64,000 bases of DNA from Tubulanus polymorphus. Lineage: Eukaryota > Animalia > Nemertea. The stretch's first letter is position 1; the number at the start of each line of letters is the position of its first letter. The stretch covers positions 25,944 through 89,943 of the forward strand of contig NW_027437463.1 of NCBI RefSeq assembly GCF_964204645.1, in the 5' to 3' direction. Of the stretch, positions 1 to 63,800 are shown piece after piece. The position numbers and the translations under genes are program-made. The notes beneath the pieces were generated by a model. That model did no database searches. It was given only the letters and a program-made list of their open reading frames with translations, and was not told where the DNA came from.

Positions 1-141
1 TTTCTCTAACGCTAAGTTATGTCTTCTTTGTTCTCCTAATGAACTATTTTTATCAATATGTTTAAATAAATATCCACCACCAGTAAATGCTAAAGCGTTA
101 ACAATTGCCGATCCTATAATAGTTATAATTGCAGAAGCCAT
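1..141 (-). CDS. Small conserved virus protein with hydrophobic N-terminus (5' part only)
   Basis: Reads MASAIITIIGSAIVNALAFTGGGYLFKHIDKNSSLGEQRRHNLALEK from a TAAATG start; homologous to 55991-56401 in copy B. Confidence 0.75.
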   Translation of the reverse strand, partial: MASAIITIIGSAIVNALAFTGGGYLFKHIDKNSSLGEQRRHNLALEK

Positions 142-166
142 TTATTTAGCAAAAAAAATTATGCAT

Positions 167-388
167 TTATATGGGAGGAATATATTTTTGTTTTTCCAAA
201 TAATCAATAGTTAAATTAGATAAAGTAACTGCTAATGTTAACTTTAAAATATCATTTATATCAAATCTATCAACATTAACACTTCCCATTTTGAATACTT
301 TTTTTAATACCATTGAATAACCAACAGTTCCAACTGATAGTAATGCGCCATTATATAATCCAGTTATTATCTACTTATTATCACTCAT
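167..388 (-). pseudogene. 73-aa small hydrophobic virus protein, nonsense codon at position 6
   Basis: MSDNK*IITGLYNGALLSVGTVGYSMVLKKVF...YIPPI; copy B has TGG (Trp) where copy A has TAG. Confidence 0.75.
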
Positions 389-730
389 TTATTTATCAAA
401 AAAATTACTATCATCAAAATATTTAGTTATCTTAGTGATGATTAATTCAACATTTATTTCATTACTACTTTGATGATTATCATATATTTTGGATAATATG
501 TTTTTGATATCATCAATAATTCCATCTTCATTTAATTCATAATATTCTAAAGGTGATTTAATTAAATCAATTACTTTTTCTATATTATACTTTTCTTTAT
601 CAATCATTGATGCATTGTTAAATGATTTACTTTTTATATCAGTAATTACATCATTTAGTTTAATTCTCATTTCTTTACCATGTTTAAAATCAAACCCAAA
701 ACATATACTCGGTCCAACAGTTATATTCAT
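389..730 (-). CDS. Hypothetical virus protein, 113 aa
   Basis: Intact ORF with TAAATG start; near-identical but frameshifted homolog at 55403-55745. Confidence 0.75.
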   Translation of the reverse strand: MNITVGPSICFGFDFKHGKEMRIKLNDVITDIKSKSFNNASMIDKEKYNIEKVIDLIKSPLEYYELNEDGIIDDIKNILSKIYDNHQSSNEINVELIITKITKYFDDSNFFDK

Positions 731-750
731 TTATATAGTGAAAAAAATTA
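728..750 (-). promoter_or_regulatory. Example of the recurrent T-run/TAAATG motif
   Basis: Minus strand reads TAATTTTTTTCACTATATAAATG: penton stop, T7, spacer, TAAATG start. The same sequence is at 55383-55405 in copy B. Confidence 0.65.
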
Positions 751-1509
751 CTCTTTACATCTTATAACTAATTCATAAATTACAGGGAAATTATTTAAAT
801 CAATTAAGTATCCATTATGATTTCTAATTTCTAATCTAAAATTATTAAAACTAGGAATGCATGGTTTGAAATCACATTCTGTTAAATTATAATTTATTTG
901 CGTTCCAAATTCTTTAACATTCTTCAATGGTAAAATGTTTAGTAAACCAGAATTACAAGTTATATCTTTAGTTGCTTCGAATGTTTTTGTAGGATCGATT
1001 AAATTGCAATAAATATAAAAATGTGTGTAAGGTATTAAGTTTGGTGTAGTAGCGTCAATATTTGTAAAAGATCTATCTGGAAGAATTCCTAACAGTTTAG
1101 CTATAGGTTTTTTTACCATAATTTTATGTTTTTCACTATTAGACAACCTTATCTTTATTCTATCAGAACTCTCACTTTTTAAAAATCTAATACTAAACCC
1201 AGAACTACTACCTAATTTGTGCCAGGCTTTTCTATTAATTTCTTGTGCTAATGTATCTAAATTATATAACCCTGGTTTTAAATATATATAGACCCATTCA
1301 TTTTTATTTCTAATATTAATTAAAAAGACTCTATGTTCAATAGACTTATCCGATACATTGTAAAAAGAATTACATAAACTTATATTAACTAATTTTAAAT
1401 CTACACAATTCTTGAATTCTCTATCTAATTGTACTAGTAAATTATGAGATTTATAATTTGTAAGTTTTCTAGAATCAACAAATATTCTATATTCTTTTAA
1501 TTCCACCAT
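748..1509 (-). CDS. Putative minor capsid (penton-like, single jelly-roll) protein
   Basis: 253 aa with motifs typical of Polinton/adintovirus pentons: IFVDS near the N-terminus, NSFYNV, LKPGLYN, FYIYCNLI and C-terminal LEIRNHNGYLIDLNN. Confidence 0.7.
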   Translation of the reverse strand: MVELKEYRIFVDSRKLTNYKSHNLLVQLDREFKNCVDLKLVNISLCNSFYNVSDKSIEHRVFLINIRNKNEWVYIYLKPGLYNLDTLAQEINRKAWHKLGSSSGFSIRFLKSESSDRIKIRLSNSEKHKIMVKKPIAKLLGILPDRSFTNIDATTPNLIPYTHFYIYCNLIDPTKTFEATKDITCNSGLLNILPLKNVKEFGTQINYNLTECDFKPCIPSFNNFRLEIRNHNGYLIDLNNFPVIYELVIRCKE

Positions 1510-1577
1510 TATTTATAACATAAAAAAATTACCGCTCATCACTAAAAATTAATTTTAATAAAATTTTTCCTTAATAA

Positions 1578-2876
1578 ATGGATGAGAAGATAGCATGCGA
1601 AATTTGTGGTGAACTTCTAAGAAAAAGTAATATGGCTCGACATATGAAAAAACATGATGAAAATTATAAACCCCCTAAAATAAACTGTCCAAAATGTAAT
1701 AAATTATTCTCAAGAAATTATGTTAAAAAACATTCAGAGAAGTGTAGAATTAATGGCGCAACGGCTAATGTTGATAGTAATTCTGCTGAAGTTGAACCTG
1801 AAGTTATTTGGAAAAGACCTTTCTTATTCTATGATAAGGATAATATAAAAGATCATTTCTGTGAGCCTTGTCAAGTAAAATATAGCCCTGAAAATATAGA
1901 AGATTGGGAGAATCATCAATTTCGTAAAGCACATATAGATAAAATTTCTAATAAATTTGAAACTGAATTCAATGAAAGAAAAAATAATTTATTAGAAAAA
2001 ATAAAATATGAGAAAACGTTACCAGATAATAAAGAAACAGTTGAAAAGTTAGAAAAACAATATAATGAATTAACAAGAAAAACATATTATTGTAAATATT
2101 GTAAATTGATTATTACAACAAGTAATTCAAATCTACATAATAGAACAATAAAACATAAAGAAAACGTAAGAAAATACCAAGAGCTTAATGAAGATCTATT
2201 ACCAATAAATTATAAACGAAAATGCCCACAATGTAGTTATGCGACCTTAAGGCAAGAAGGTACTGTGTTATTTTGTGTTGAATGTGGATGGCAAAAGAAT
2301 TTATGGGGTGAAGAAAAAACTAGAGATTTTCTCATAGAACCAAAATTAAATTATCTAGATGAAATTTTTAAAATATTTTCTATAGAAGATTATACACCAG
2401 AATATATGCAATGGCTTGAAAAAATGAAAATAATAGAAAATAAAAATGGTGAAATAACTAAAAAAGATATTATAAAAACAATTATTCCACCAACATTTAA
2501 CACAAAACAAAAGAAAATGTATTTATATTTATTATTTAACGATTATTATGAAAAACCTAAATTAACAGAAGAAGATATGGAAAATATAAAAAAAATATTT
2601 AAACAAATATTAATGTATCATTTGGAAAATAGAATAACAGATTCAATAAATTATGAATTCTTTTTAAATAAGATTGTAAATTATTTAAACCTAGATATTA
2701 TAATTCCATTTGATGAATTAACAAACAAAAAGAAACAAAGAGAGCGAGATGAAATGTGGAACAAGATAGAACTTTATTTAAATGAGAAAAATGGAATGGA
2801 AGAAGAATCTGAACAATTAAATGGAAATGAAGAAGCCAATAGTGATTTCGAGTTTGATGATATAGATCCATTTTAA
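1578..2876 (+). CDS. Zinc-finger protein fused to a poxvirus VLTF3 (A2)-like late transcription factor domain
   Basis: N-terminal C2H2-type fingers, then a CPQC-x13-CVEC ribbon followed by KLNYLDEIF, IFKQILMYHLEN, INYEFFLNKI and DEMWNKI, matching the VLTF3 motif order as I recall it; acidic tail. Intact 432-aa ORF. Confidence 0.72.
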   Translation: MDEKIACEICGELLRKSNMARHMKKHDENYKPPKINCPKCNKLFSRNYVKKHSEKCRINGATANVDSNSAEVEPEVIWKRPFLFYDKDNIKDHFCEPCQVKYSPENIEDWENHQFRKAHIDKISNKFETEFNERKNNLLEKIKYEKTLPDNKETVEKLEKQYNELTRKTYYCKYCKLIITTSNSNLHNRTIKHKENVRKYQELNEDLLPINYKRKCPQCSYATLRQEGTVLFCVECGWQKNLWGEEKTRDFLIEPKLNYLDEIFKIFSIEDYTPEYMQWLEKMKIIENKNGEITKKDIIKTIIPPTFNTKQKKMYLYLLFNDYYEKPKLTEEDMENIKKIFKQILMYHLENRITDSINYEFFLNKIVNYLNLDIIIPFDELTNKKKQRERDEMWNKIELYLNEKNGMEEESEQLNGNEEANSDFEFDDIDPF

Positions 2877-5800
2877 TAACCATAAGGTAATGTTTTTATA
2901 CCATCATCTGAAATATGCCTTTTATCATCAAATGGATTTAAATTAGTTTTTTCAACTTCATTAATGTACATCTCATGATTTTCTGATCTTAAACAATTCA
3001 TCTTGTGTTTCATTACAATTGATTTATATAAACACTTTATATAATCTTAAAATTCTATATGTTTATCAACCACATGTTTTGTTATTCCTTTTAACTTTTT
3101 AGCTTCATGATCTTTTGTTCTGTAACTATACATTTTACTTCTTATCCCAACAAATTCAATCATTTCATCACCTCCTAATTCATCTTTAAATTTACCAGGA
3201 ATCTTTTTATTATCATTGCTAAATAGTTCATGATCTTTAGGATAATTGCTAAAATCAAAATGATGTTTTAATGTTTTTAAGTCTTTTGTTATGTCATTTG
3301 TCTTGATTTTTAGTATGTACGCATCCGTATTTTTTTGGATTAATGGGAACCCAGAATTGAATGTTCATCTGTTGATAAATCATAAACATAGTCAGTTGGG
3401 TTATATATTTCAAATAAATCTTTAACTTCTTCAGTTAAATCTTTTTCTACATGCCTTAAATTAAAGCAATTTGGTTTAGATTTAATCAATCCAATATTCA
3501 TATTGAAGCCTAATGAACTGCATAACACATTTAACCCACTTATTGCACATTTTCCTTTCTGTGCAAAGGTTATCGTTTTATCCTTTATAAATTTTTTAGT
3601 ACCATCGGCTGCGTAGAACCCAATGAAGAACCATTTTCTAAGATTATATTCTGAATTTAATATATAATCTGGTACTATTTTTTCTTTAGTTGAAGTATTA
3701 CTTTTCACTATTGCATGAATATAGAATTCATCATTATATTCTATAGCAAAATCTTTAGGATTATTTACAAGTATTCTATAAACTGCTGATGATTTCATAA
3801 CATCCATGATTCTAAATGTTTTATGTGAATAAACTTCTTCACAGAATTTCTTAATTCTTTCTAATAATTTTAAGTCTTGATTGCATAAATACCAACAATA
3901 TTTATTACCCCAAACATATTTATACACACCTGCTGAACCATCACCCATGAAAAATCCTTTGATAAAATATTCTTTTTCTTCCAATGTTTCAGGTTCTATA
4001 TTATAAATATTATTAATTATTTCATCAAATGACATATGATTCATTCTTGGGAAAAATCTTTTATGTAATAATTCATCTCCAATTTTTATATCAGTTGGTT
4101 TTATTTCATCACCATTTTGTTTAATTAAACTGTGGTCTTCAGTAACATCTACAAACCCTAATTTAGTTCTAACTCTATAGATTTTCTTATTTGTTTTATG
4201 TCTAATAATATTCTTTAATTTTTTCCATCCATTTCTTGTCCAAACATCTATTAAACCATTTATTTGTATCAATTCTTTTTCTCCATATGAAATATAACAT
4301 TCATTTTGTTTTGGAATTATTTCTGAAATTCTTCTTACTAATATTTTATTATTACATTTTAATAATATTGGGGTGTCGGCCGTTACAGAATCGAAGTACA
4401 GAATTTCTATATGTTTTTCCCCAAACAATGGTTGTAATACATTGTAATAAAAATCATACATTAATAATTTTGATATTTCTAAAACTGTTGAACCAATGAA
4501 AATGGGTTTATTAAATTTCATTGACGTTCTTTTTAATTTTACTGCTGTTAAATAATCTTCAAATCTTTTATTTCCTAAATGTCTAGGACTTGATTGTAGG
4601 TGTCTCAATCGTTCAGAATTATTTACTAATTCAATATCATTTCTATTTCTAATATTTTCACATGTTTTACCATAAAAACTATTGTTCATTAATTTGAAGA
4701 AATCTTTTTCAAAATCTGTTTTTGATATGGTTCTCTGTTGAGTATTGAAATCTATATATTTTTCTAACCACTTGGATTGATTAAATTCAATATATCTATG
4801 TACTTTCTTTAATTTCATTCCTTGTTTTAGATAAAATTTTAACATTCTATAATGAACAATATAATTGTATTTATTATTTTGAGTAAGTATTAATTTTTCT
4901 GTAAAAACATGATCTTTCGGTTTTATTTTCTTCTGGTATTCACTTAAATAACTATCATCTACAGTTAAATGTTCTGGGCAATAAGGTAAGTTTCTTGTTT
5001 TAAACTTTATGTTATCAGGATATTCTAAATCAACTACAAAGAAATAACCAATTGGTGCTTCATCTTCTAAACTCATAATTGCGCTTTCCCAATTAGTTTT
5101 ATCATCATTTTCAACTTCTGTTAATATAAAATTTTTATATGGTTGAGGTTGCATCATTGCCCAACCATATAAATTATTGGCGTCAATATATAATAATTTA
5201 TATTCATCATTTGCTTTAAAATACCTATCTCCCATAACACCACTAATTCCACCTCTAATTGATTTTTCAAATAATAAAACCATATCTGGTTCTTTTAATA
5301 AATCTAATTCTACATTTGTATATTTTAAACCACATTGCCAGGTTAAACCAGGACTTGAATAACAATAACAAGGATCAACATTAAAATGATTCAAATTAAC
5401 TTCTCTAAATTTTTCAAATATGTCAGCCAATATCATAACATCTGATTTTAAATATAAATCAACTAATTCGCCATGATTTTTCATCTTAAAATGGTTCCAA
5501 ATATTTAATGTTCTATTAAACACTTCGTCTTTCACATACTCCTCTTTTAATTTATCATAAAATTGATCTTTTAATAATTCTGTTACATTAAAATCATCAT
5601 GTGTTTTATAAAATGAATAAGGAATTGCGCCTTTATATCTCAATAATTTAAAATCTTGTTCATTTGGATAATAATATCGAGTTATAACAAAATCATTATC
5701 AACTAAACTTTTTGATAAATTATCTAATGAACTTGCTAGAAATCTATAAGAATCTAAAAATCTAATGCAACCAAATTGAAATGAAATATAATTTTCAGAT

Positions 5801-7931
5801 GTTTTAGCTAATAGTTTAAAATCATATTTTCTTACATTTGCTTCATTCATAGCATTATATTCTTCTATTTCTTGATTAATTGCACCCAATTTTCCCGATA
5901 ATTGTTTTATAAATAGATGGGTATCATAACCCGATAAATTATGAAATAATATTGGTACGAAATTAACTTTCTTAGCTTGTAAATTGCAATCTTCATGAGC
6001 AGCTCCACGATATTTTGAATTCAAATGATCATGATCTCTAACTCTTTTATCAAATGAATAAAAACGTTTTTCACAATAACAACAATGAGTTGCATAATTA
6101 AAATCAATTTCATCTTCTTTTGTCATAACTATTCTTTTATTTTTGTTTAATAATTTTGTAAAATCACTTTCTAATTCAATCATTTTATCACAAAAATCAT
6201 TAACTACATTTTCACCTCTAAAAGAAATATATTGACTTTCATATAATTCGGGATAATTTGATTTGATGTAAATTCCATAAGCAGCAGCTCTTTGATGAAC
6301 TTTTTTAATTGTATTTATAATTGGCGGGTCTTGTATTGTGTCTTCATTTAATTCATTTCCTTTATCCATTGATTTTAATAATTGCTTTTTGTTATATATT
6401 TCTTTTCTATCTTGATCAGTTAATTCTTTATTCAACGATTCAAAATCCCCATAAATTACAAATGGAACAATATTTTTAAATTTATGATTAGTAAATTTCA
6501 ATTTATAATCTTTTTCTGTTGGCATTATTAATTTACAGAATCTTTATTATCACATAATTCTTTATGTTTTAATAATGTATTCTCAGTCATAAATTTGGAT
6601 AAACATTTTCTACATAGATAAATTTTATTATGATGATCACTTTCTGTTCTAAAGAATAAATCAATTTGTTTTAACCACATATAATGTTCATTTTCATCTT
6701 TTTTGTAATATAACAAATCTATAGCATTTTCATCATCATAATATTCTGTTAAATATAAAGCTTCCAATGTATAATCTTTAATATTTTCACCTTTTGTCTT
6801 TGGTAATTGCATTAATTCGAATACATTTATTTTTAAATTATTAACTTTTTCTATTTTAGGAATCATTTTTATAGTTACTGGATATTGATCAATTTTATAT
6901 AATGTTTCATATTTCCGATAATCTGTTATTCTACAAACATTTTCCTGTGTTGGATGTAAACAACTAATAATTGACCATAGAAAACATTTATTATCTTCAT
7001 TTTGAACATTTATTACTGCTTTTGTTGTAAACGGTAATTTGATATAACTTGATGCTTTCATATCCTTTTCTGTTGTAAAGTTTGAATCATTTTTAAACAT
7101 TTTATTACTTTTTGATGTTTTATTCCTTTTTGTATTATAAACATTTAAATCTAAATATATAATTTCATTCAATGTTAAGCCAGAACCCTCAAAATATCTT
7201 TCTTCAATATGACGTTTAAATTCATTTAATATTTTTTCTAACTTCTCTTTTATTTGTGTTTTTGAAATTATTTCTTCAGAGTGTGTTTGAATATTATAAT
7301 CCATTTTTTCTTCTGACTTTATAAAACTTACTTTCCCAGAGATACTAATTTTTGGATATTCAACATCTGTTATCAAATCTAGTATTTTTTCTATTATTTC
7401 ATTAAATTTACTATAATCTTCTATTGTTGTACCTTTAAAAAATCTAAATATAATAGCTGCAGGACCAATTTTACTATGTAATGTTTCTAAGATTTCAATT
7501 GTATCTTTTATTTCTAGTGAATCAATATAATTTCTAATATTTTCCATGTAAGGTTTATTTGAAATGGATTTAGTTTTTGAAGTTGATTCTTTTACTTGTT
7601 GAGGTTTATCATCAAAATAATCTATTCCTAAAACATTATTTCTCAAATTTTGATGGTGTTTTTCTGTTTCGAGATGTTTATTATAATTCCTTTTTGTTAT
7701 AAATTCATCACAAACTTCACATTTTATTTCATCCACATTCATATTTTCTAATCGTTCTTTTCTTTCAATGGAATTTTCTGGAGTTTCAAAATCTATAACA
7801 TTTTTTATATGATTTGAAGATTTTTCATGTTTAGATTTATTAGATTTATCGATGTATTTTTTACAATATTGACAATAATATTGATTTTTATTGATATTAT
7901 TGTTTTCTAGTTGGTGTTCATTCTCCCCCAT
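2873..7931 (-). pseudogene. Protein-primed family B DNA polymerase (pPolB) with N-terminal zinc fingers, endonuclease VII-like insert and intein; disrupted
   Basis: Motifs SYIKLP..VINVQNEDNKCFLWS, YGDFES (ExoI), FHNLSGYD (ExoII), YLKSDV (ExoIII), YIDANNLYG, KLMNNSFYGK, YFD/TD, KMYSY, KLKGI. Lesions: frameshift near 6535, frameshift near 3360, in-frame TAA near 3048. The C-terminal part continues to ...KTLPYGY* at 2873. Confidence 0.93.
3329..4389 (-). mobile_element. Intein with LAGLIDADG homing endonuclease in pPolB motif C
   Basis: Insertion of ~354 aa between YFD and TD relative to copy B (YFDTDSY). Block A SVTADTPILL, block B VTEDHSL, LAGLIDADG-like FIKGFFMGDG and FFIGFYAADG, block F YVYDLST, terminal ...GFPLIQKN (in the shifted frame) followed by Thr. 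Confidence 0.92.
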
Positions 7932-7996
7932 TTATTAGGAAAAAAAATTACTTGTGGTGATGAGTGTTAGGAAAAAAATTACTTGTGGTGATGAGT
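7929..7996 (-). promoter_or_regulatory. Tandemly duplicated ~31-bp upstream element of pPolB ending in TAAATG
   Basis: Minus strand: two copies of CACTCATCACCACAAGTAATTTTTTT(T)CCTAA directly followed by TAAATG. Confidence 0.6.
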
Positions 7997-10478
7997 GGTG
8001 TCTCGTACTTCGTACTCTGATCTGAAAGCCTACTTTTCCAATTACTATAGTGTTCCTGGACCCCTTTAAAAATGTACTCTGAAAAAAGAATATTCTCTAT
8101 TTTGTTATGTCATTGAAGATTCTCTTCTATGAGGTGCCAACGCAACTTCTTCTAATTTTGATTCCATGTGTGAATTTGTATAATTGATTTGCATTTGAAG
8201 GTATGAACTTGTATTGAATATTCAAACATTTTTGTCCATTTGAGGATTATGAGTGTCCATAGATGGAATCAGGTTTCTTTTTAACGTTTTCATTACACTT
8301 TGATGTGTTGTCTTGATGCCTTTCCTAGGGGCATCGTATAATTTTTATGGACTTTTGCTTTACTGAAGTCCATTTTTGCTCATGTATGACACGTGCCTCC
8401 ATTGGTACAAAATAACTTGCGAAAGAAGCTTAGTTTCTCATCTGATCTTTCAAAATGTTCAATGTTGTAATAATCTCTAACCCTCCTGCACCACCCTCCT
8501 GTAAGGTTTGTTAGAACTCTACAGCCGGTAAGTCTTAATAAATCTTCTTGAAAGTTTGTGTATGAGTTGGAACAGGTAAGAGGTGATATTGAAAATGGTG
8601 ATCTATCAGCTAGATGATATGTCCAACATGACAGCCATGTCTGCCATCTTGAATTTTTCATTGGCACCATACAGCTTGCCAACCTATATTGATTTCCTTG
8701 ACCCTGGTGTATTAGCAGGTAAGAGGTCTACCCCTATTAAAATTGGTGACCACCAATTGTCTAATATTGCTGCTATATTATCCAATGTATGATTTTCTTC
8801 ATTTTCAATAATCATTAGCACTGTCACATGTTATATAGCTGTAGAAATCTGTGACTAATGAGTATACTCTACACCAGGGGAGTTGAAAATTTGAATACAC
8901 TACTACGTATTAGTCAATTTTTATGAAAACCATAGTTATGTATTGATAATGATGTTAAATGGCCATTTGTCTACAAGGTATATATTGATTCCCCTATGTA
9001 GATTCAGTTATTTTCGATTTGAGGAATTTCTATCAACCTCAGATACATGTATATCGTACATAGTTTAAAATGACCCTTGTGTAAAAGATTAATTTTGTGC
9101 TGTAATTATCAAAAGTGTCGGAATATTCATTATTGCCATACCACGTAACAACCATTGTGGGAATAGATTATTTCAGTTGCATGGCATGTTGTCTCTACTA
9201 AGAGAATGAAAAAATAGTTGAGAAAAAAATGTTTCGGTTCTCCATCGTAGGTTTGACACATATGTATTAATGTTGTAGTCATCGAGAATTAATCATATCT
9301 CTACAGATTTTGTGCATATTTACATGTCAATAAAGATATTTTCAAATAAGACCATAGCGTTGTGTTTCCATTGCTGAAAAGGAATAGGATCGATTCGATG
9401 CAGCATACTTGATTCCTTATACGACTAGGGCCTACATATGTTAAATTCCCCGACATCAATTTCCGAAGTTCACGTTATCGTATTGGGTTTTAGTTCAACA
9501 TTTTAGTTGAGTAGTTTATGCATCTATAGTTTTGACTGGAAGACAACACCGTTGGGCAAATATCTCAAATATATAGAAGGAAAAATATCGAATTGTGGTC
9601 GGCCCAGACTGCAGATCGATTCTCATGTACTGCCAAGGCTTCTAATGCAATATCTCGAGGCCCCCACATCGCTGCTGCAGACCAGATCTTTGATGCAGAG
9701 CCCAACATATGAATGACCTGTTCAGCCCTACAAATACATTTTTCTGGCATTCTATCATATCATTTAATGATAATTACTCAAGTAAAGTAAAGACGTAAGC
9801 CCCAATACGAAATATTTTGAAGCATGAATTTATTTTTATTGTTTCAATCATAATATTACATGTAATGCATTCACATCGTGATGTTACTTAACCTAAATGT
9901 TTAGAATAGTTATTAAGATGAGCGCAACATACATAGCATCAAAATTTCAAAATTCAGCCATCCATTTAACATATTGACTCGTTGTTCAGTGGGGTAACTA
10001 AAACACATTTTAAAAAATAATTTCTAGTTTCGAATCTGTAAGGAGAGATGAAGTGGGGTTTCTTCCGACTTCCTGAGCTATGAATAACTAGTTTTAAAAT
10101 TTAAAAGTGATTTCGACGGTTTATCCGAAGTTTAAAAGCCTTGCGTAAGTTGGATCTTTTGGGACCAAGACAAATCCTTCGACTTCGAAAAATTCCGATT
10201 TCCAGCCGTTTCCAAAAACTATACGACTTCCAATTAATTTCTGTAAACGGAAAGATTTAATCCATATCTACAAGAATGATTAAAAACACTGAAATATTTC
10301 GGGTTCAATTTTTCCAATATACTCTCACAACTAGAATAACGACTGTTGACATGTATCATCGATTTACAGCCAGAAAAAAAGGGTCGGGACAGAAAAGAGA
10401 ATAGAGGAGAAAATTCTGGACCATCAGTATTCATGTGATATAAATGTGATCGTGATATAAGCGAGTATCCGACTACGT

Positions 10479-50110: not shown

Positions 50111-50569
50111 TCACTTCTCTATTATATTACATAACTGAGTAATTCTTACATTTGATCGGCTAACTACAGGTGGAAAGAGGTCAGATGGCATGAAAATTGA
50201 CTGTGGCTGAGTAATTGGCGCGAGTAGATAAAGCATTGAGGTTTCGAAAGATGTCGCCAAAATGCTTGTATCATCAGGGGTAGACAAATTATCCAAAGAT
50301 AAATGAAAACTCCACGTTGTTGATCGTTTTTCATTTTTATATCTTTTATTACAAATTTCACAACACTTAATATTATTAATTCCATCTGATAAATAATTTA
50401 TGTTATCTTTTAATTCAGCGTATCTAATTTTGCAATTATCATAAAATTCTAACAACTGTTTTATACTATAAAATGAAAAAGAAACTAATCCTGTAAGCAT
50501 AATAATTGATTTAATATTCTGTTGATTTTTATATATAAGATGTAATAAGTTAAATATATTTTCACTCAT
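50111..50569 (-). CDS. Hypothetical virus protein (hydrophobic segment, CxxC); the C-terminus probably reads through into flanking DNA
   Basis: AT-rich first ~80 codons with TAAAAATG start; composition changes after ~50330. Confidence 0.4.
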   Translation of the reverse strand: MSENIFNLLHLIYKNQQNIKSIIMLTGLVSFSFYSIKQLLEFYDNCKIRYAELKDNINYLSDGINNIKCCEICNKRYKNEKRSTTWSFHLSLDNLSTPDDTSILATSFETSMLYLLAPITQPQSIFMPSDLFPPVVSRSNVRITQLCNIIEK

Positions 50570-50616
50570 TTTTATAGTAAAAATATATGAAATAAATTAA
50601 ATTAAAAGATGCGGTC

Positions 50617-50838
50617 TTAATCCTCTAAATCATTTTCTAAATTAACTTTTTTATTGTTATTTTTCCTGAGATTGTTTCCATTTAACTTCTTTAACTTTTT
50701 ACTCAATTTCATGTTTTCATTCATTAGATCCTTACTGATATTTTCATAGTAAAAGTAAAGTGCAGCTAATATTAAACCTCCAGCAACTAGATAATGTTTC
50801 AAATCACTTTTTCCAATAGGAATGCTGAAACCATCCAT
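50617..50838 (-). CDS. Small single-pass membrane protein, 73 aa
   Basis: TAAATG start; YLVAGGLILAALYFYY hydrophobic stretch followed by a basic tail. Confidence 0.6.
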   Translation of the reverse strand: MDGFSIPIGKSDLKHYLVAGGLILAALYFYYENISKDLMNENMKLSKKLKKLNGNNLRKNNNKKVNLENDLED

Positions 50839-51126
50839 TTATTTAATTAAAAAGATTAATAAGTAATTTGAAATATCTTATTATGAATATTTAGAGTTTA
50901 ATTATTATTTTTGAGTTATGATATTTTGATTTAAGATGGTGTGATTTATTGCTTCGAGTATAATATTTTCCACAATTACATAAAACGCTTTCATTAGGAT
51001 TATATTTAGGCGTAACAATTTCATTATCTAAGTTACATTGAGTTCCTATATCTTTGAATGATTTTTCATTATCAAATTCACATTGAATACCAATATTTGA
51101 TGAATTTTCATTATAGATAATTTGTT

Positions 51127-51522
51127 TTATTTTGATAATTTTTTTAAATAAAATAATTGCCTTTTTTCAATTCTTAAGTTAATCAAATCATTGTTACCTT
51201 TAGAAAGTATTAAATCACTATCTCTTTCATTGAAAGGAGTTTGAATAATATTTATTATGTTTTCATCTAAATTACCTTTACAATTTAAAACTGTATTGAA
51301 TATTTTAGGATTTTTAGCGCCATTATCAAACGTATCAATTAGTTCAGTAATTAAATATGTTTCATTTGATAATATTTGATTAATTACAGTAATATTATCA
51401 ATTTTATAATGCCTCTCATACACTTAATTTGATGCTGAAATATAATTCTTAATGTTAAACTGTGAAAATGATTTATTGGTTTCTTTTATTTCGATTTTGA
51501 ATTTAGGTTCTTCTTTCTTCAT
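51127..51522 (-). pseudogene. Hypothetical virus protein, probably disrupted
   Basis: 98-codon open frame at 51127-51423; likely true start TAAAATG at ~51522 separated by a stop. Confidence 0.4.
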
Positions 51523-51552
51523 TTTAATAACCAAACTTTTATTAAAACTCAT

Positions 51553-52115
51553 TCAAATATAAATATTCAATGTTTTAAATATGAATTATTTCACTCGTTA
51601 ATTACTCATTACTTTTTATATTGAAAATAAGAATTTAACACGTATAAATATAAATATTCAATGATTTGAATATGGATTATTTCACTCGTTAATTACTCAT
51701 TACTTTTTATATTGAAAATTGATTTTTTATTATTCGAAATCTATATTTGATCTTATTTTCTAGATTATTATGCTAATATTTTACTCTCACTTTTAAAACA
51801 TGAATATTTTAAGAGTAATTGGTAATGTCTTGTTTCAAGTCAAAGGTTGAGGGGGCGAGTGAGTCGAAAAATGAAAATAAATTAGTTTGCTCCACTTCGC
51901 TACCGCTCCACTCCGCGACCAATTGATTTATTTACAATACACAAATTCATATAATCAAATATATTTTAATAATAATAATTCTATTATTCAACTGAAAAAC
52001 ACACGGTTATGAAAATATATTATAGTTTTAAATTACTTTTAATATTTGTTTTTAATGAACTCGACCCTTCAACCTTTAACCTGAAAGCCCATTACCCCTA
52101 TTACTCTTAAAATAA
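51553..52115. promoter_or_regulatory. Non-coding control region with a direct repeat and an inverted repeat
   Basis: ~72-bp direct repeat (~51556 and ~51646) and ~60-bp imperfect IR (~51806-51870 versus ~52058-52114) between divergent gene blocks. Confidence 0.55.
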
Positions 52116-52310
52116 TCATATAAATGAATAACATTTAAATTGACAGATTATTCAATATAAAAGTACATATTTACAACATTATTTCAATATTAATATTTGT
52201 ATGAGTTAGATTTTTAAACATTAAAAGTGTTAGTAAAGTGTGATTGAAATAATGCATATATAAATCATTGAACTTCTAAAATCAATTTAAAAGAAAAATT
52301 TAGTATTAAA

Positions 52311-54201
52311 ATGGAAGCAAATAAGTACTACTGCCCAACATGTATTATCAATATAGATAAATCCCAAAAAGCAAGACACAATAAAACTAAAACACATTTA
52401 GAGAATAAATTGAAACTAGAATATAAAGATGATATATTAGAAACTAAATTAGATCAATTAAAGAATGAAAAAGAAACATACAAATGTGATACATGTAATC
52501 AATCATTCAGTGATAAAAGATATTATAATGAACATTTAAAATCTAAAAGTCATATTAGAAATAAGAATAATCATATTTTAGGTGAAGATTATTTTGATAA
52601 AAATAGAAAATCATGGGCAATTAGTAGATTTATATTTAAAATCAGATGTATTATTATTAACCGATATATTCGAAAGGGTTAGAGATGTAAACCTAAAATA
52701 TTTCAATATTGATCCTTGTCATTGTTATTCAAGTCCAGGATTAACATGGGATTGTGGATTAAAATTTACAGATATAAAAATGGATTTCTTAACAAATATA
52801 GATCAATTACTATTATTTGAAAAATCTATAAGAGGAGGAGTTTCAGGTGTATTAGGTGATAGATATTTCAATGTAAATGATAACCCTGGATATAAGTTAT
52901 TATATATGCAAATAATTTGTATGATTGGGCAATGATGGAACCACAACCTTATGGAGTATTTGAATTAACTGAAGTTTTACAGAATGAAAATAATGATAAA
53001 TTTGATTGGAAGAAAAGAATCCTAGATATTGCAGATGATTCAGATACTGGTTACTTCTTTGTTGTAGATTTAGAATATCCTGAACATATTAAATTTAAAT
53101 CTAGAAATCTAGCATGCTGCCCCGAACATAAAACTGTAACTCATGAAGAATTATCAAATTACCAAAAAAGAATTAAACCCGAAAATCATATTCATACAGA
53201 AAAGTTAATGGTAACTCAAGAAGATAGATATAATTATGTAGTGCATTATAGAATGTTAAAGTTTTATCTAAAACAAGGAATGATTCTAAAAAAAGTACAT
53301 AGATATATTTCATTTAGTCAATCTAAGTGGTTAGAAAAATATATAGATTTTAACACCAAACAGAGAACTGAAGCTAAAACTGATTTCGAAAAAGATTTCT
53401 TCAAGTTAATGAATAATGCATTCTATGGTAAGACTTCTGAAAATATTAGAAATAGAAATGATATTGAGTTAGTTAGTAATGGTAAAAGAATTAGACATTT
53501 ACAATCATATCCTAAGTTTTTAGGTAACAGAATATTTGATGAAAATTTAGCTGCAGTTAAGATGAGAAGAACATCAATGAAATTTAATAAACCAATCTAT
53601 GTTGGTGCTTCAGTTTTAGAAATATCAAAATTACTAATGTATGAATTCTATTATAATGTATTACAACCACTTTTTGGAGAAAAACATATAGAAATATTAT
53701 ATTTTGATACAGATTCTTACATATTAAAGATAAAAACTGATAACATAACTGATGATTTAAAAACATTAAAACATCATTTTGATTTCAGTAATTATCCTAA
53801 AAATCATGAATTGTTTAGCAATGATAATAAAAAAGTTCCCGGTAAATTCAAAGATGAATTAGGTGGTGAAGAAATGATTGAATTCATCGGTATTAGATCT
53901 AAAATGTATTCATATAAAACTAAAGAACATGAAGCTAAAAAGTTAAAAGGAATAACCAGAAGTGTAGTAGAAAAGAATATTCATTTCAAAGATTACATCA
54001 ATTGTATATTCAATGAAGAAGTTAGAAAACATAAGATGAGATGTTTAAGATCTGAAGATCATGAAATGTTTATTGAAGAAATTGAACCCATTTGATGATA
54101 AAAGATATATTTTAGATGATGGAATTCATACAGTTGCTTATGGTTGTAATTTAGATGAATACTTAAATTTAAAAGAGAAGAAACAAAAGAGAACGAGATA
54201 A
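52311..54201 (+). pseudogene. pPolB, intein-free allele, with a large internal deletion and frameshifts
   Basis: Zinc fingers, then a jump near 52600 to NHGQLVDLYLKSDV; KLMNNAFYGK, YFDTDSY, KMYSY, KLKGI. Frameshifts near 52908 (damaging the DxNxLY motif) and 54088. Confidence 0.92.
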
Positions 54202-54253
54202 TGAATAGGATTATAACGTGTTAATCAAATTTTAATAAAAATATGTATTATAA

Positions 54254-54607
54254 ATGGAGAGTAAACAAGCGCACAGTGAGAACAACAAATCATTTCTAGA
54301 TAGAATAAAAGATACTTCAAATGTCAAATCAGTAGATTATAAATTCAAAAAGTTAAAAGAATTAACAATTCATAAGAAATATTTAATTACATATATTGAT
54401 ACAGTTACTAATAACTATGGAGATAAATTAGTTATACACTTAGAATATGAAGGATTAAAAGGAAATACACATAAATTCAGAACATATTTACGAGATAGAT
54501 TTCATAGATTATCAAGTGAAGATCTAGAAGATTTATGTTCTGGTGATTTCTATTTCGTATACAAAGGTAAGAATGAAAAAGGGCACCATGAAATAGATTT
54601 CGAATAA
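54254..54607 (+). CDS. 117-aa virus protein, possibly an OB-fold/ssDNA-binding type
   Basis: Intact ORF with TAAATG start; beta-rich pattern FKKLKEL..Y.I....TNNYGDKLVIHL..FRTYL. The function is a guess. Confidence 0.55.
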   Translation: MESKQAHSENNKSFLDRIKDTSNVKSVDYKFKKLKELTIHKKYLITYIDTVTNNYGDKLVIHLEYEGLKGNTHKFRTYLRDRFHRLSSEDLEDLCSGDFYFVYKGKNEKGHHEIDFE

Positions 54608-54624
54608 GAAAATATGTAAAATAA

Positions 54625-55385
54625 ATGGTAGAATTAAAAGAATACAGAATATTTGTTGATTCTAGAAGACTTACAAATTATAAATCTCATAATTTACTAG
54701 TACAATTAGATAGAGAATATAAAAATTGTGTAGATTTAAAATTAGTTAATATAAGTTTATGTAACTCATTTTACAATATATCGGATAAAACTATTGAACA
54801 TAGAGCCTTTTTAATTTTTAATAAAAATAAAAATGAATGGGCCTATATATATTTTTAAAACCGGGGTTATATAATTTAAATACATTGGCACAAGAAATTA
54901 ATAGAAAAGCCTGGCACAAGTCAGGTAATAATTCCAGGTTTAATATTAGATTTTTAAAAAGTGAGAGTTCTAACAAAATAAAGATAAGGTTGGCTGATAT
55001 TGAAAAGCATAAATTTATGGTAAAAAAACCTATAGCTAAACTGTTAGGAATTCCTCCAGATAAATCTTTTACAAATATTGAAGCTACACCAAACTTAATA
55101 CCTTTTACACACTTTTATATCTATTGCAATTTAATCGATCCTACAAAAACATTCGAAGCAACTAAAGATATAACTTGTTATTCTGGTTTATTAAACATTT
55201 TACCATTGAAGAATGTTAAAGAATTTGGAACGCAAATAAATTATAATTTAATAGAATGTGATTTCAAACCATGCATTCCTCGTTTTAATAATTTTAGATT
55301 AGAAATTAGAAATCACAATGGATACTTAATTGATTTAAATAATTTCCCTGTAATTTATGAATTAGTTATAAGATGTAGAGAGTAA
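54625..55385 (+). pseudogene. Minor capsid (penton-like) protein, frameshifted near 54852
   Basis: Two ORF pieces together align end to end with 748-1509. Confidence 0.8.
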
Positions 55386-55402
55386 TTTTTTTCACTATAT
55401 AA

Positions 55403-55745
55403 ATGAATATAACTGTTGGACCGAGTATATGTTTTGGGTTTGATTTTAAACATGGTAAAGAAATAAGAATTAAACTAAATGATGTAAATTGCTGATATAA
55501 AAAGTAAATCATTTAACAATGCATCAATGATTAATAAGGAAATTTATAATATAGAAAAAGTAATTGATTTAATTAAATCACCTTTAGAATATTATGAATT
55601 AAATGAAGATGGAATTATTGGTGATATTAAAAACATATTAACCAAAATATATGATAATCATAAAAGTAGTAATGAAATAAATGTTGAATTAATCGTAAAT
55701 AAGATAACTGAATATTTTGATGATAGTAATTTTTTTGATGAATAA
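55403..55745 (+). pseudogene. Homolog of the 113-aa protein, +1 frameshift near 55488
   Basis: Near-identical to 389-730. Confidence 0.8.
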
Positions 55746-55966
55746 ATGAGTGATAATAAGTGGATAATAACTGGATTATATAATGGCGCCTAACTATCAG
55801 TTGGAACTGTTGGTTATTCAATGGTATTAAAAAAGTATTCAAAATGGGAAGTGTTAATGTTGATAGATTTGATATAAATGATATTTTAAAATTAACATTA
55901 GCAGTTACTTTATCTAATTTAACTATTGATTATTTAGAAAAACAATAATATATTCCTCCCATATAA
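55746..55966 (+). pseudogene. Homolog of the 73-aa hydrophobic protein, stop plus frameshift
   Basis: Aligns with 167-388; TAA at codon 16 and one A missing in the run near 55830. Confidence 0.75.
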
Positions 55967-55990
55967 ATGCATAATTATTTTACTAAATAA

Positions 55991-56401
55991 ATGGCTTCTG
56001 CAGTTATAACTATTATAGGATCGGCAATTGTTAACGCTTTTGGTGGATATTTATTTAAACATATTGATTAAAATGGATCATTAACAGAACAGAAAAGACA
56101 TAACTTAGCATTAGAGAAATATAATAAAGCAGCAGAAGAATATAGAGAAAAACGACAAAACTATATGGAATATATTAACAAGGAATTATATGATCAGAAG
56201 ATTTCACATAGAGATTTTCAATCAGTTGATGATGCAATGAGTTTATATAACGCGGTAACCAATAAAGAAAAATTACATCTATACAAACCTAAATTATCAG
56301 ATTATTATACCCCAAGTAATGAACGGAAGAAATATGAAATAATTTGGATTTTAGGTGGAACTGTTATTGTTATATTTGTTGCTTATAAGTTTACTAATTA
56401 G
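55991..56401 (+). pseudogene. Virus protein with N- and C-terminal hydrophobic segments and a central coiled coil
   Basis: Homolog of 1-141; 12-nt deletion and an in-frame TAA near 56069; ends IIWILGGTVIVIFVAYKFTN. Confidence 0.7.
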
Positions 56402-56421
56402 TAATTTTTTTTGCTAAATAA

Positions 56422-57612
56422 ATGGAAGATAAAGTTGATGATATTGATATTATTCCTCATGATATAAATAAAACTAAATTAAAAAGATATTTAGAAAAAC
56501 AAATATTAGAATTTGAAAGTGACTTAAAGATAAAAAAGAAAAAATATTTAAAAAGTAAAATTATATATTATCTTATTATCAGTGGTTCGGTTACAATTAT
56601 TTCTGTAATAACATTTCTAGCAATATTTAGTCCATTAACACCTTAAAGGCCGAGGAGCAGTAATAGAGCCCGATCAATGTCAAAGATGGCAGTACCCATG
56701 AAGCAATAGTGCAGTGGAGAGCTCCAACGGTTGAAACTGGAAATCTCCTTTTTTCTCTGTCAGTTATCCGATTTGGACCCTCCTTTTTGTCAGACATATG
56801 TATTAATGTGTAATATATTCATTTCTGCAATGTGTTTTAGGCCCTCCTCTACGAGAAATTAAGCTTTTTAGTTGGTATTTCCTTAAAAATTTGAATCTTT
56901 GAATGACATAGAGGGAGGAGTTATTCAGTGAATTAGTGTAGCTCACAGAGCACATTAACACTAATTTGATACCTATAGTCATCAGTATACATAAACAAAA
57001 CATAGCCTCATTCATAGTACCAAAATTTGGCAACATCAAAACTTTTTCTATGGTCAATGGATCAGTCTGAAATTTCGTACACTTGTTTAGCTATCTACCA
57101 TCAATGTTTCAAAAAAATTTGAAATGTCTCTAAAATTTTTAATCTTGGCCCTATCTCTACAGAAAAAGATCGCTAGCATCAGATTTTCATTCCCACTATG
57201 ACTAGATTATTTAAAATTAGTTTCGAACTTGATATGAAAACTTTTATGAATTTGTCAAATTTTACTGTGTGTGACCTGCTTTTCTGTTGTGAGCCAACCT
57301 CGCTCACTCTAAACATTTTAAACAAGATACTGTAAAAGTGGGACGGCCGATCTCAAGTGTTTGCCACCCGGTTAACTAGCATCCATACTCCTCGGCCTTT
57401 AAGCTATATCAATTTGTGTATTAGGATTAAGTTCAAGTGTTTTAACTGGTATAAGTTCAAAATTAAATATAAAAAGTAATAAAGAAAAAATTAAAACTAA
57501 TATAAAAGAAATTAATAAATTAGAAAATACACTAGATTATATAATAAGTTTAAATGGCCATATAACAGTTGAAGAACAAGATAAATTATTAAAAGAATTA
57601 ATAAATTATTAA
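56422..57612 (+). pseudogene. Two-TM coiled-coil virus protein interrupted by a transposon
   Basis: MEDKV...AIFSPLTP* resumes in frame at 57403 as AISICVLGLSSSVLTGISSK...KELINY*. Confidence 0.75.
56647..57398. mobile_element. Non-autonomous DNA transposon with TTAA TSD (Kolobok-like termini)
   Basis: TTAA-AGGCCGAGGAG ... CTCCTCGGCCT-TTAA. Purine-purine 5' termini fit Kolobok better than piggyBac (CCY). Confidence 0.8.
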
Positions 57613-57628
57613 TTTTTTTATTATATAA

Positions 57629-58946
57629 ATGGTAGATAGTTTTCCAAAAGCTTTCCAATATAATAAATCAATTAAATATAATATTCCAGCAATAGATTTT
57701 AATAAAGATATTACATATAGAAATGAAGTTTTAAATTCATTAATTGATTTATATATTTATGTTACTGAAAGTAATAATTTTCATGTAAAGATGGAAAATA
57801 TATTTCATGTGTATACAATTAATTTCAAAAATTTAAATGAGGCAAAACAATGGTTATTAAAATCTAATATGAAGTATTGGCAGAACCAATTAAATTTTGC
57901 TGTTTATTGCGCAACAACAGGTTGTGGAATTAGTTGGAATGATCATTTAAACAAACCAAGTTTACCATTGATGTTATCACTTTTTAGATTTCATACATAT
58001 TTTCAAATAAAATTAATATTAGATGAATTAGAATGTCCTTTACCAGGTTCAAAATATTTTAAAGAATTGAATAATAATATTAATTTTTCTAAGTTTTATA
58101 AAATATGTAATGAATTTAATATTAATTCAAATAAAGATTTTAGAGCAAAAATTGGAACAATGGGTGGATTAGGAATATTGTATACTAAAGAATTTGGAAA
58201 AATAATGACAAATTCAGATATAAGAACTATGAATGAATTACCAAAATATTATAATAATATACAACAACAAAACAATAATGGTTGGGTTAATTTCATTTTA
58301 GAAAATAGTGAAGGTTTTACTAAAGCCGGATTACAAAGAATAAATCAATCTATTAGAACTTATTTGATATGTATTTTAGGTGCGCAAGTTGAAACAAGAT
58401 CCCCAATAATTGGAAATGATAACACATCATTCGATGCGCAGAAACAATTCAAAGTATTATTTGAAGATTCAATTCATAATGATAAAAATAGATCGATTCC
58501 AGAAAACATTGTAAGATATCAAAATTATTTAGATAAATCACATATTAGATTAAATTATTGTATAGGCCCTAATCTATTAATTATTTCTAATGATTTAGTA
58601 TTAAAGATGGGAAACATAATTGGTTATAATAATCTAATTAAAACTGCAACAATAAATAATTCATTTGGGTTAAATGATATAAATAAAAAGATTATTACTG
58701 CTCCAAAATTAATGGAAGGTGAAAAAAATAAAAAACATATTCAATCAACAGAAACTAAAACTAATAATATTAAATAAAATAAAAGATTACAATACTACAG
58801 AAAATATAGAAACTGATATTATTCAACATGATATAATTAAACTAAATGATGATAATAAATCCTATGAAAATGCTAAATTAGCTTTAACTTGTATAGGAAT
58901 TGTTATAGGAATATTATATTTTATATTTTTTTATTTTATTATATAA
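57629..58946 (+). CDS. Conserved Polinton-like virus protein of unknown function (frameshift near the C-terminus, terminal TM segment)
   Basis: 382-aa ORF with WQNQLNFAVYCATTGCGIS and FRFHTYFQ motifs; the overlapping frame continues to LTCIGIVIGILYFIFFYFII. Confidence 0.65.
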
Positions 58947-58956
58947 ATGGCTATAA

Positions 58957-61257
58957 ATGGCAGAAGATTTTCCATTGGGTTCTTTAGATGAACCCGGTAT
59001 AAGTGATGAACAACAACCTGATTTTGATGAAGCAAGTTTTAATGATGATAATAAAACAGCATATAACAATAATTGAAATAATGATGAAGATGATGATTTT
59101 GATGATGATGATTATGATGGAATTAATTCCGAATTACGTGAAAAATTAATTAAATATTTAAAAGTCCCTGAAAGTGGTAGAATTTCAACTAGAACAGAAA
59201 GAAAAGAATTTATGAAACTATTAGAAAAACAACAAGAAAAATGTCCTGATAAACCTATGGAATTATATAGAATGAAATCTAGAGTAACAGATACAATTGT
59301 TAACGAATTATTACCAAAAGTTGTAATAGATGAAATTGATTCAGAAGGTGTTGTAGAATTTTAAAAGATGACCCATTTTTCATGAATAATTTTGGAATTT
59401 AAAAATGATTCATGGTATCTTAATCTTGAATTAAATAGGAATATTGTAACAATTCAATTATCTAGAATGGGTCAAGAAAATATTTTTGAACCTGGAATGC
59501 GAGCATTATCTACAATTGAAGGTTCAAAAGGTGGTAGAGAATTTCTCAGAATTATATGGAATTCACTCGATAGAATAAATAAAGAAGAACCAATTCCTAA
59601 TATTGATATAAACAAATATTCACCATTTAAAAATCCAAATCCAAATCCTACTTTTGTTGATCCAGAAACTGATGAAGATTTTGCAAATCGATTAGATAAA
59701 TTAAGAAATTCCGAATTACGTGAAAAATTAATTAAATATTTAAAAGCTCCTGAAAGTGGTAGAATTTCAACTAGAACAGAAAGAAAAGAATTTATGAAAC
59801 TATTAGAAAAACAACAAGAAAAATATCCTGATAAACCTATGGAATTATATAGAATGAAATCTAGAGTAACAGATACAATTGTTAACGAATTATTACCAAA
59901 AGTTGTAATAGATGAAATTGATTCAGAAGGTGTTGTAGAATTTTAGAAGATGACCCATTTTTCATGAATAATTTAGAATTTAAAAATGATTCATGGTATT
60001 ATAATCTTGAATTAAATAGGAATATTGTAACAATTCAATTATCTAGAATGGGTCAAGAAAATATTTTTGAACCTGGAATGCGAGCATTATCTACAATTGA
60101 AGGTTCAAAAGGTGGTAGAGAATTTCTCAGAATTATATGGAATGCACTCGATAGAATAAATAAAGAAGAACCAATTCCTAATATTGATATAAACAAATAT
60201 TCACCATTTAAAAATCCAAATCCAAATCCTACTTTTGTTGATCCAGAAACTGATGAAGATTTTGCAAATCGATTAGATAAATTAAGAAATTCAACACCAG
60301 AAACATCGAGAAGAGACAATCAACAAATTGATAATGATTCAAGTCAATTACAATTAACATTAGAAAAACAAATTGATAGTTAAAGAGATTCAGAAGTACT
60401 GATGAATAGTATATCAGATACACCCGATACTGAAACTGGAATAAATCGAATACAATCTTTACTAGAAAAAGGATTACTTGATTTAACTGATGATGAATTA
60501 GAGGCATATCCTGAACAAACACGTAGAGAAATTAAAGGTGTACAAATATCAGCTGGTGAAATTGCTAATATTAAGATGAGATTTTCTAAAATAACCATGT
60601 TAGAAAAAGAATTAGCTAATGCAAATGAAGAATTAAAACAATTAGAATTAAATAAAAAATCTTCAAGTAATAGAGGAAGCTGATTATGAAAGCAGAAAGT
60701 TAGCTTTAGAAAAAGAAATAGATGATTTAAAATATAACAAAGAATTACAGGAAAAAGAAAGAGATACATTATTAAAATCATATGATCTTAATCATATTAA
60801 AAAATTAAAAGTTATTTTTAAAGATTTGTTCATAAAACCAGATTCTAAAATATCATTGAAAGATAGAATAAAATTATTATTTAAGTTAGAAGGTATAACA
60901 ATTCTTTCAATTCTAACAGCTGTAACTATGTTATTTACAACAATTGGTTTAGCTATATCAAAGTCACTGAAATCTACTCCTACTCCAAATAAACCAGATA
61001 AACCCCCAGAAAATAATAATTCTATACAAGATAAAGTTAAGGATGGTTTAAAGAAATTAGCAAAATATTTATGGGAACTATCTAAAAAATCTGCTGCAGC
61101 ATTGGCCGGAGTTATTGCATCAATTGTTGGTTTTATATTGAAATCTGCAGGAAACATTATTAACTTTGCTGCTGAACATATTATTTTATTTTTAATTACA
61201 GTTGTAAGTGCTATTATTTTTGGATTAGTGAATATGATATCAAAAAATATCAAGTAA
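58957..61257 (+). pseudogene. Large acidic/coiled-coil protein with C-terminal hydrophobic and amphipathic helices, fragmented
   Basis: Starts MAEDFPLG after TAAATG; successive ORF fragments with no internal T-run/TAAATG starts; ends ...AAALAGVIASIVGFILKSAGNIINFAAEHIILFLITVVSAIIFG. Confidence 0.6.
59125..60287 (+). repeat. 582-bp tandem duplication
   Basis: 59125-59706 is repeated at 59707-60287; AATTC microhomology at all three junction points. Confidence 0.92.
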
Positions 61258-63776: not shown

Positions 63777-63800
63777 TTATTATAAAACTAATTTATATAA

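Follow-up and report, generated by a model that had tools for sequence, protein, structure and literature searches.

In the mavirus/endogenous mavirus-like elements (EMALEs) of Cafeteria, integrated viruses whose family B DNA polymerase is protein-primed (pPolB), the motif at the gene starts matches the late promoter of the helper virus (TCTA of CroV), and deducing a helper from promoter motifs is an established approach for them (PMC8547959). Polinton-like viruses (PLVs) from entomopoxvirus occlusion bodies were published as the first poxvirus hyperparasites; these, AHEV_PLV1, AHEV_PLV2, CBEV_PLV1 and Ca_PLV1 (Barth et al. 2024), are small AT-rich double-stranded DNA viruses of animals with a double jelly-roll capsid and an A32 ATPase, and a beetle chromosome carries an integrated relative (PMC11296320). 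Homologs of the late transcription factor VLTF3 occur in some stony-coral polintoviruses, which are integrated in animal genomes (PMC11131425), on the map of the MELD virus (PMC8502044) as well as in roughly 30% of two PLV clusters (10.64898/2026.06.19.733378). Here we describe a 64,000-nt stretch of the nemertean Tubulanus polymorphus (contig NW_027437463.1, positions 25,944 to 89,943 of the forward strand; hereafter the window) which contains two decayed copies, A and B, of a multi-copy Maverick/Polinton-type virus. Nearly all genes of this element and of its closest capsid relatives start at a two-part signal that strongly resembles vaccinia late promoters. We give about an even chance to the interpretation that a pox-type virus infecting the same cell, and not host polymerase II, would supply the transcription of this integrated virus with its RNA polymerase.

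The element resembles the entomopoxvirus-associated PLVs in these features, the A32 ATPase being known from its close relatives, and also the integrated relative of the PLVs. These PLVs, however, carry an adenovirus-type protease and no rve integrase, whereas the clade of the element has an rve integrase with chromodomain and no visible protease; moreover, their link to poxviruses is backed physically by the occlusion bodies, that of the clade by promoter evidence (PMC11296320). The available text of this paper contains no promoter or VLTF3 analysis of its PLVs, and four short capsid motifs of the element family, compared as plain strings and not by alignment, are absent from its supplement text, the long cells of which are incomplete. 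The EMALEs differ from the element in their protist host, the Imitervirales helper, the virophage-type capsid and an experimentally proven activation, whereas the element is known from its sequence (PMC8547959). The coral polintoviruses resemble it in host type and, in part, in VLTF3, the available text being without promoter analysis (PMC11131425). The yeast linear plasmids pGKL1/2 are likewise pPolB elements with a pox-like initiator, but lack capsid and integrase and encode an RNA polymerase and a capping enzyme of their own (PMC6211774). Neither PLVs associated with poxviruses nor the presence of VLTF3 in polintoviruses of corals is therefore new. The clade-wide pox-type promoter signature is apparently new: a search that left most of the subscription literature outside found no publication in which late promoters of pox type are described for a whole clade of animal Mavericks, and the accessible parts of 10.1101/2024.03.23.586382, 10.64898/2026.10.13.758929 and 10.1101/2025.04.19.649669 contain nothing on pox promoters in Mavericks.

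The two-part signal at the gene starts

Relatives were collected by means of the major capsid protein (MCP). The C-terminal piece of the copy B MCP yielded 58 homologs among 186 candidates, and the capsid alignment retrieved 79 loci (cited by L numbers, single proteins by P numbers) in which open reading frames (ORFs) of at least 80 aa were called automatically. The clade is defined as the 15 loci with capsids ca. 52% or more identical to the query, the other 64 loci serving as comparison. In a quick capsid tree of 36 of the 79 loci and the window piece (43 with short or broken ORFs were omitted), 14 of the 15 clade loci group with the window piece on one branch (SH-aLRT 98), while L042 was placed in the clade by identity.

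The hexamer TAAATG, which places the start codon directly behind TAA, is present at 16 of the 20 gene starts of the window (5/6 within positions 1–8020) compared to 45 of the 892 other ATGs of both copies (binomial p 7e-18). As these 20 starts were picked by ORF length and homology after a first look at the motif, the count was repeated blindly on the automatically called relatives, where TAAATG was found at 53 of 62 starts in the clade, at 6 of 298 in the 64 other loci and at 1 of 31 in an AT-matched control of 10 non-clade loci with a GC content of at most 33%. Capsid starts alone, counted in the 33 of 79 loci with a capsid ORF of at least 380 aa, gave 13/13 in the clade and 0/20 elsewhere, and five of the nine deviating clade starts have TAAAT or TAAAAT just upstream. 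The second part of the signal is another T, which precedes the first T of the motif by nine bases and is found at 50 of the 53 TAAATG starts of the clade and 19 of 49 internal TAAATG sites. Together, the two parts mark capsid, polymerase, integrase and ATPase genes of this one clade. The GC content of the clade spans 20–44%, so that AT bias is not the cause of the motif. The sequence-only reading had claimed a T-run with TAAATG at nearly all gene starts and had made an excess over the AT-matched expectation its test; the hexamer and its excess hold, while the T-run is common rather than universal, runs of at least five T preceding 11 of the 16 TAAATG starts of the window and a strict five-T run 24 of the 53 in the clade.

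Further candidate explanations or markers were discarded. Coupling of stop and start codons as the source of TAAATG is ruled out, because its TAA serves as stop of the upstream gene at just 1 of the 53 starts, and the motif is also carried by 13 of the 14 starts of divergent genes. Very short intergenic gaps, noted in the sequence-only reading, are indeed present but not distinctive, as gaps of at most 30 nt account for 22/47 in the clade and 115/234 in the other relatives. Depletion of the pox early terminator TTTTTNT is not claimed, the ratio of 0.45 against 0.72 in the control being a weak difference. The coding strands show no depletion of AATAAA, be it in the window, in the clade or in the other relatives, and this hexamer thus cannot tell nuclear from cytoplasmic transcription.

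Vaccinia late promoters, for which we rely on a review, consist of TAAAT plus G over the start codon and a conserved T, the 10th base upstream, among other Ts (PMC11980589). According to a structure paper, the viral polymerase directly reads their TAAA, which is numbered −1 to +3 there (PMC12917281), and slippage at such initiators yields 5′ poly(A) leaders (PMC6211774). In the review, the conserved T is the 10th base when counted upstream from TAAAT; the peak in the element lies nine bases before the first T of the motif, i.e. at −10 when this first T is −1. The resemblance is strong in both parts and in their spacing, with the difference that the element carries the late-type signal at nearly all genes, replication genes included, unlike vaccinia. 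Genes annotated with TAAATG are also known from salmon gill poxvirus (PMC4542343).

Two alternative interpretations were considered first. In the first, the motif merely represents a translation-start context or an inherited relic without a current promoter role. AAA before ATG is common in the sister lineages (16 of 29 AT-rich starts), of which TAA could be a drifted variant; on the other hand, loci whose capsids are only ca. 52–60% identical and whose GC contents range over 20–44% have all preserved the invariant T at −3 and the separate T at −12 relative to the ATG, although a relic would be expected to decay. We regard this possibility as very improbable. In the second, the element is an autonomous nuclear Maverick transcribed by host polymerase II, and TAAATG with its upstream T is a lineage-specific initiator, perhaps aided by its own VLTF3-like factor. 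The integrated, multi-copy state, the coral polintovirus gene expression cited in 10.64898/2026.06.19.733378 and the sister lineages of the same capsid family, which lack the motif and have AAA before ATG most frequently (33/218), agree with this proposal. Against it, a start at TAAA would leave hardly any 5′ leader, the signal resembles the pox late pattern in both parts and spacing, and it persists in members of the clade in which no VLTF3 is visible, though most of these loci are fragments. We therefore consider transcription by the host polymerase unlikely.

The VLTF3-like protein and the polymerase intein

A VLTF3-like gene had been one argument of the sequence-only reading. The entire 432-aa ORF (1578–2876) has no Pfam match, but its trimmed C-terminal part matches Pox_VLTF3 (PF04947) with E 1.8e-6 and 27–28 bits (best 28.2) against a cut-off of 25, covering positions 83–163 of the 168 of the profile; this holds for trimmed pieces, and the homologs P0087–P0089 were missed. 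The profile match is hence genuine and weak, and the lack of one, named by the sequence-only reading as a refuting result, did not occur; in copy B another gene occupies the corresponding slot. In the ESM Atlas, 27 of 30 matches belong to the VLTF3 set (best score 0.94). Among 1.84 billion representatives, five proteins were retrieved at E <0.001, namely three element-like homologs, one zinc-ribbon false match and P0090, a canonical VLTF3 which is 63% identical to VLTF-3 of Amsacta moorei entomopoxvirus and the nearest canonical one found. For all four element queries, both entomopoxvirus VLTF3s outscore all 75 motif-selected giant-virus VLTF3s, the values for the window protein being 39 and 25 bits compared to at most 20. 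Other searches added little: the word-based homolog search with the C-terminal region gave 0 of 1075 candidates, the profile search with the VLTF3-like alignment two proteins which were both in the alignment beforehand, a comparison of the VLTF3 profile with the PDB sequences nothing under E 0.16, and the viral-contig scan with the VLTF3 alignment no match. A single-sequence fold of the ORF reached a pLDDT of 40 and was not used. In the close relative L006, a deoxynucleoside kinase gene (10340–10981; Pfam dNK E 2e-31) adjoins the start of the VLTF3-like gene.

The polymerase of copy A contains an intein, as originally proposed, whereas the copy B polymerase has none. The position of this intein behind YFD in the catalytic motif, the S at the start, the N followed by T at the end and the combination of HINT and LAGLIDADG domains are those of a Pol-c type intein. 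Endonuclease insertions attributed to inteins (PMC11161782) and homing endonucleases (PMC12220804) have been reported before in polinton pPolBs. A viral-contig scan with the intein found 37 loci, of which the best four are 38–41% identical over the full length and three of these four lie in metagenome-assembled genomes (MAGs) of giant viruses. Among the 18 of these 37 that were inspected, 17 are inserted after YGD and one after VGD, and the two host frames tested are RNA-primed family B polymerases. We classify the intein on this basis as an allele of the giant-virus PolB inteins. Homing of an intein requires that both DNAs are present in one cell, and a shared allele thus suggests that the lineage likely met a nucleocytovirus, a point in favour of the pox-type interpretation as well.

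This relationship bears on a third alternative, in which the element depends on a helper, but the polymerase is supplied either by a nucleocytovirus other than a poxvirus whose late promoter is similar or by a partner element encoding an RNA polymerase, just as yeast pGKL1 depends on pGKL2. The giant-virus affinity of the intein supports this possibility, as does the TAAAN initiator with slippage of the yeast linear plasmids (PMC6211774). It is opposed by the lack of TAAATG at all 50 giant-virus-type VLTF3 gene starts and by the search for an RNA polymerase, which gave no Pfam match among the window ORFs and, in a simple motif test, no catalytic motif in the window or the 15 clade loci, all of these elements being incomplete; furthermore, the intein may be an older, separate acquisition. 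Considering both sides, a helper of this kind appears quite unlikely.

Copies, gene content and classification

The window contains two AT-rich blocks (1–8018 and ca. 50331–64000) with a GC content of 0.24 each, separated by DNA with 0.38; the AT bias noted earlier is thereby corroborated. Both blocks are decayed copies of the element (Table 1). They have 1.5 kb in common at 93% identity (54619–56119 in copy B), and both are broken and likely passive.

Table 1. Positions of the element copies and their features within the window
Feature	Position	Strand	Remarks
Copy A, Maverick/Polinton-type element	1..8018	-	GC 0.24 vs 0.38 in flank, and gene content; continues beyond left edge of window
Three small conserved genes	1..730	-	starts at 730, 388 (broken) and 141; 93% identical to copy B counterpart in 54619-56119
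Likely minor capsid (penton) gene, 253 aa	748..1509	-	weak Pfam DUF5901 match, E 0.003; 42% to L006 ORF 565-1329; putative assignment
Divergent promoter gap, 68 nt	1510..1577	.	plus side T-run + TAAATG; minus side T-run + TAAATAATG
Zinc fingers, then zinc ribbon + VLTF3-like domain	1578..2876	+	open over 432 aa
pPolB	2873..7931	-	Pfam DNA_pol_B_2 PF03175, E 3e-19; tblastn with L003 and L019 polymerases
Intein with LAGLIDADG homing endonuclease	~3329..4389	-	polymerase motif YFD/S...N/T; broken near C-terminal end
Probable copy A end	7941..8018	-	31-nt tandem duplication with T-run, then short repeats to 5'-AG terminus; exact end +/- few bases
Copy B, decayed mosaic relative of copy A	50331..64000	+	no end recognised on either side
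pPolB remnant, copy B	52311..54150	+	big internal deletion, intein-free; DNA ~77% identical to copy A polymerase
117-aa gene in slot of copy A VLTF3-like gene	54254..54607	+	33% to L006 ORF 125-469
Conserved family gene	57629..58777	+	81% to L006, 38% to L019
MCP gene, double jelly roll	61314..62559	+	broken
Long hairpin after post-capsid ORF	63772..63905	.	z -12.9

The pPolB postulated in the sequence-only reading was confirmed by its Pfam match; in copy A, the gene is interrupted by two frameshifts near 6540 and 3360. The postulated capsid gene exists as well, albeit in copy B and broken, and neither copy in the window unites pPolB, MCP and VLTF3. The conserved gene at 57629–58777 matched nothing in Pfam and NCBIfam, and a 382-aa gene of the element nothing in the viral-contig scan. 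Copy B is further altered by a ca. 760-bp insertion with inverted ends (ca. 56644–57402) that splits a gene, likely a small non-autonomous DNA transposon, and by a near-perfect tandem duplication of ca. 582 bp within a long gene (59125–60292).

Copy numbers were estimated from 12% of the raw read run X6 at 88% likeness, which provides rough depths. The depth over copy A is ca. 160–750 compared to ca. 36 at one apparently unique flank site (18314), corresponding to roughly 4–10 copies of the A type when the end bins are excluded. At the copy A end, 728 reads depart from the window sequence behind 7966, and the depth declines from ca. 670 to ca. 120 past 8004. The VLTF3 bin (266) is near the polymerase bins (313–340) and the intein bin (158) reaches about half, from which it follows that most A-type copies likely carry VLTF3 and some the intein. 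An apparent ca. 100-fold excess of the element in run X1 was rejected as a sign of replication, since it resulted from summed contig depths and single-contig sites gave ca. 9–13-fold.

The fold predicted for the natural homolog P0001, 74% identical to the MCP C-terminal piece, is a double jelly roll (pLDDT 86.8), which in Foldseek matches iridovirus and Paramecium bursaria chlorella virus 1 (PBCV-1) capsids at E 3e-17; according to this model, the capsid of the element is a double jelly-roll MCP. An rve integrase and an A32 ATPase are missing in the visible parts of the window. They are found in the close relatives L004 and L006, whose capsids are 70–76% identical to that of copy B, as an rve integrase with chromodomain and as Pox_A32 matches of E 5e-14 (L004) and 5e-11 (L006). 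A scan for the His-Trp motif of adenovirus-type proteases detects none in the 15 clade loci, all of them partial, while recovering the proteases of L002 and L003. The pPolB and capsid here, together with rve and A32 in L004 and L006, define a Maverick/Polinton-type virus, an assignment made by gene set, as the capsid tree comprises relatives and no named reference Maverick capsids. Virophage-type MCPs have ca. 500–600 aa. The capsid of the element has 415 aa, and those of Sputnik and mavirus rank 40 and 49 in Foldseek at 10–12% identity, behind iridovirus and PBCV-1. By its capsid the element does not belong to Lavidaviridae; the label virophage given by the sequence-only reading fits a possible lifestyle, as the element may work like one, but not a family membership.

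A hairpin of different sequence stands at the position matching the one of copy B in L004 (3757–3811, z −8.0), L005 (3113–3167) and L008 (3183–3255, z −11.3), in these three between convergent genes; copy A and 12 other clade loci have none. It is conserved in position and could be a two-way terminator or a replication/resolution site. It recalls mimivirus-type transcript ends, a point counted in favour of a non-pox helper.

Several observations concern the surroundings and the databases. The DNA between the copies contains a BEL/Pao long terminal repeat retrotransposon with three ORFs (38052–42830), a likely host single-exon gene with ankyrin and G-patch domains (22202–23242) and a short host repeat of very high copy number (ca. 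12695–13033; X6 depth ca. 2900 compared to ca. 50 close by). The retrotransposon in particular would by itself mark the DNA as likely animal. The viral-contig scan with the capsid alignment gave no match. Capsid homologs of the P0009 cluster are filed under nine Bartonella assemblies, likely due to contamination from a eukaryotic host, and a Saprospiraceae MAG contains L082. The longest contig given is 16883 bp for each of three homologs, of the capsid, the VLTF3-like protein and dNK (P0061, P0093, P0101), and 12994 bp for both members of another pair, capsid and VLTF3-like (P0034, P0089), which hints at shared contigs.

A possible pox-type transcription mode and its meaning

From the signature we infer a helper virus, expression in the cytoplasm, a role of the VLTF3-like protein and, if any, a benefit to the host. 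In a co-infected cell, TAAA would be recognised by the polymerase of the helper, with transcripts beginning at its first A and gaining a 5′ poly(A) leader through slippage; the absence of an encoded 5′ untranslated region would thereby be explained. All genes of the element would fire once helper replication begins. The element would then rely on its own proteins, namely pPolB for replication, capsid and ATPase for packaging and the rve integrase for integration. The VLTF3-like protein would likely act as an accessory factor that favours the promoters of the element or competes with the factor of the helper.

A number of points weigh against this scenario. The clade represents about one origin, and the small p-values therefore show conservation, not function. 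Integration requires the nucleus. TAAATG is also found at 7/7 starts, with the upstream T in 4, of the different polinton L003 (IMG/VR, 9034 bp; protease-integrase fusion, 38% GC, polymerase 38% identical) and at 2/2 starts of L048, so the signal may have several origins or a wider distribution. Two 20-kb stretches of insect-poxvirus type match the pattern partially, with TAAATG at 8/19 and 6/19 starts and the upstream T at 3/8 and 5/6 of these. The coding strands of the clade are poor in runs of six or more T (9 observed, 37.9 expected), which in itself speaks for the pox-type interpretation, but A-runs are depleted too (A7+ ratio 0.44), and the avoidance may be general. The relatives of the intein are giant-virus and not pox sequences. 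A VLTF3 tree of 28 rows (21 of the 75 giant-virus sequences, and without asfar-, irido- and chordopoxvirus rows) resolves three groups with saturated branches and composition warnings and names no donor, which also counts for a non-pox helper; a shared AT-rich composition may drive the pox lean of the VLTF3 scores. In the clade loci no ORF passed the VLTF3 profile search, L006 being cut in the N-terminus of that gene. Finally, VLTF3 is retained by mriyaviruses, which have no RNA polymerase and for which a nuclear lifestyle is inferred (PMC11253617), in line with transcription by host polymerase II. VLTF3 consequently supports contact with nucleocytoviruses and is no proof that a viral polymerase is used. 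In summary, the pox-like promoter interpretation withstood the AT-matched, internal-ATG and stop-start controls and extends to a clade, while VLTF3 lends it weaker support than first claimed and the intein points to giant viruses.

A further-reaching version of the pox-type interpretation would regard the animal Maverick clade as obligate satellites of undiscovered poxvirus-like viruses of invertebrates. The integrated copies would be provirophages switched on only by such an infection, and the VLTF3-like protein would divert late transcription of the helper, thereby providing an antiviral defence of the virophage type. We present this version tentatively and consider it rather doubtful.

The promoter signature bears on the question of whether the Mavericks of animals live as autonomous viruses, as transposons or as parasites that depend on a helper. 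Its occurrence in one capsid clade and not in the sister clades makes it possible to sort these elements inexpensively, from sequence, by their likely mode of transcription. If true, the pox-type interpretation predicts 5′ poly(A) leaders at TAAAT and the existence of pox-like viruses in hosts from which none are known so far.

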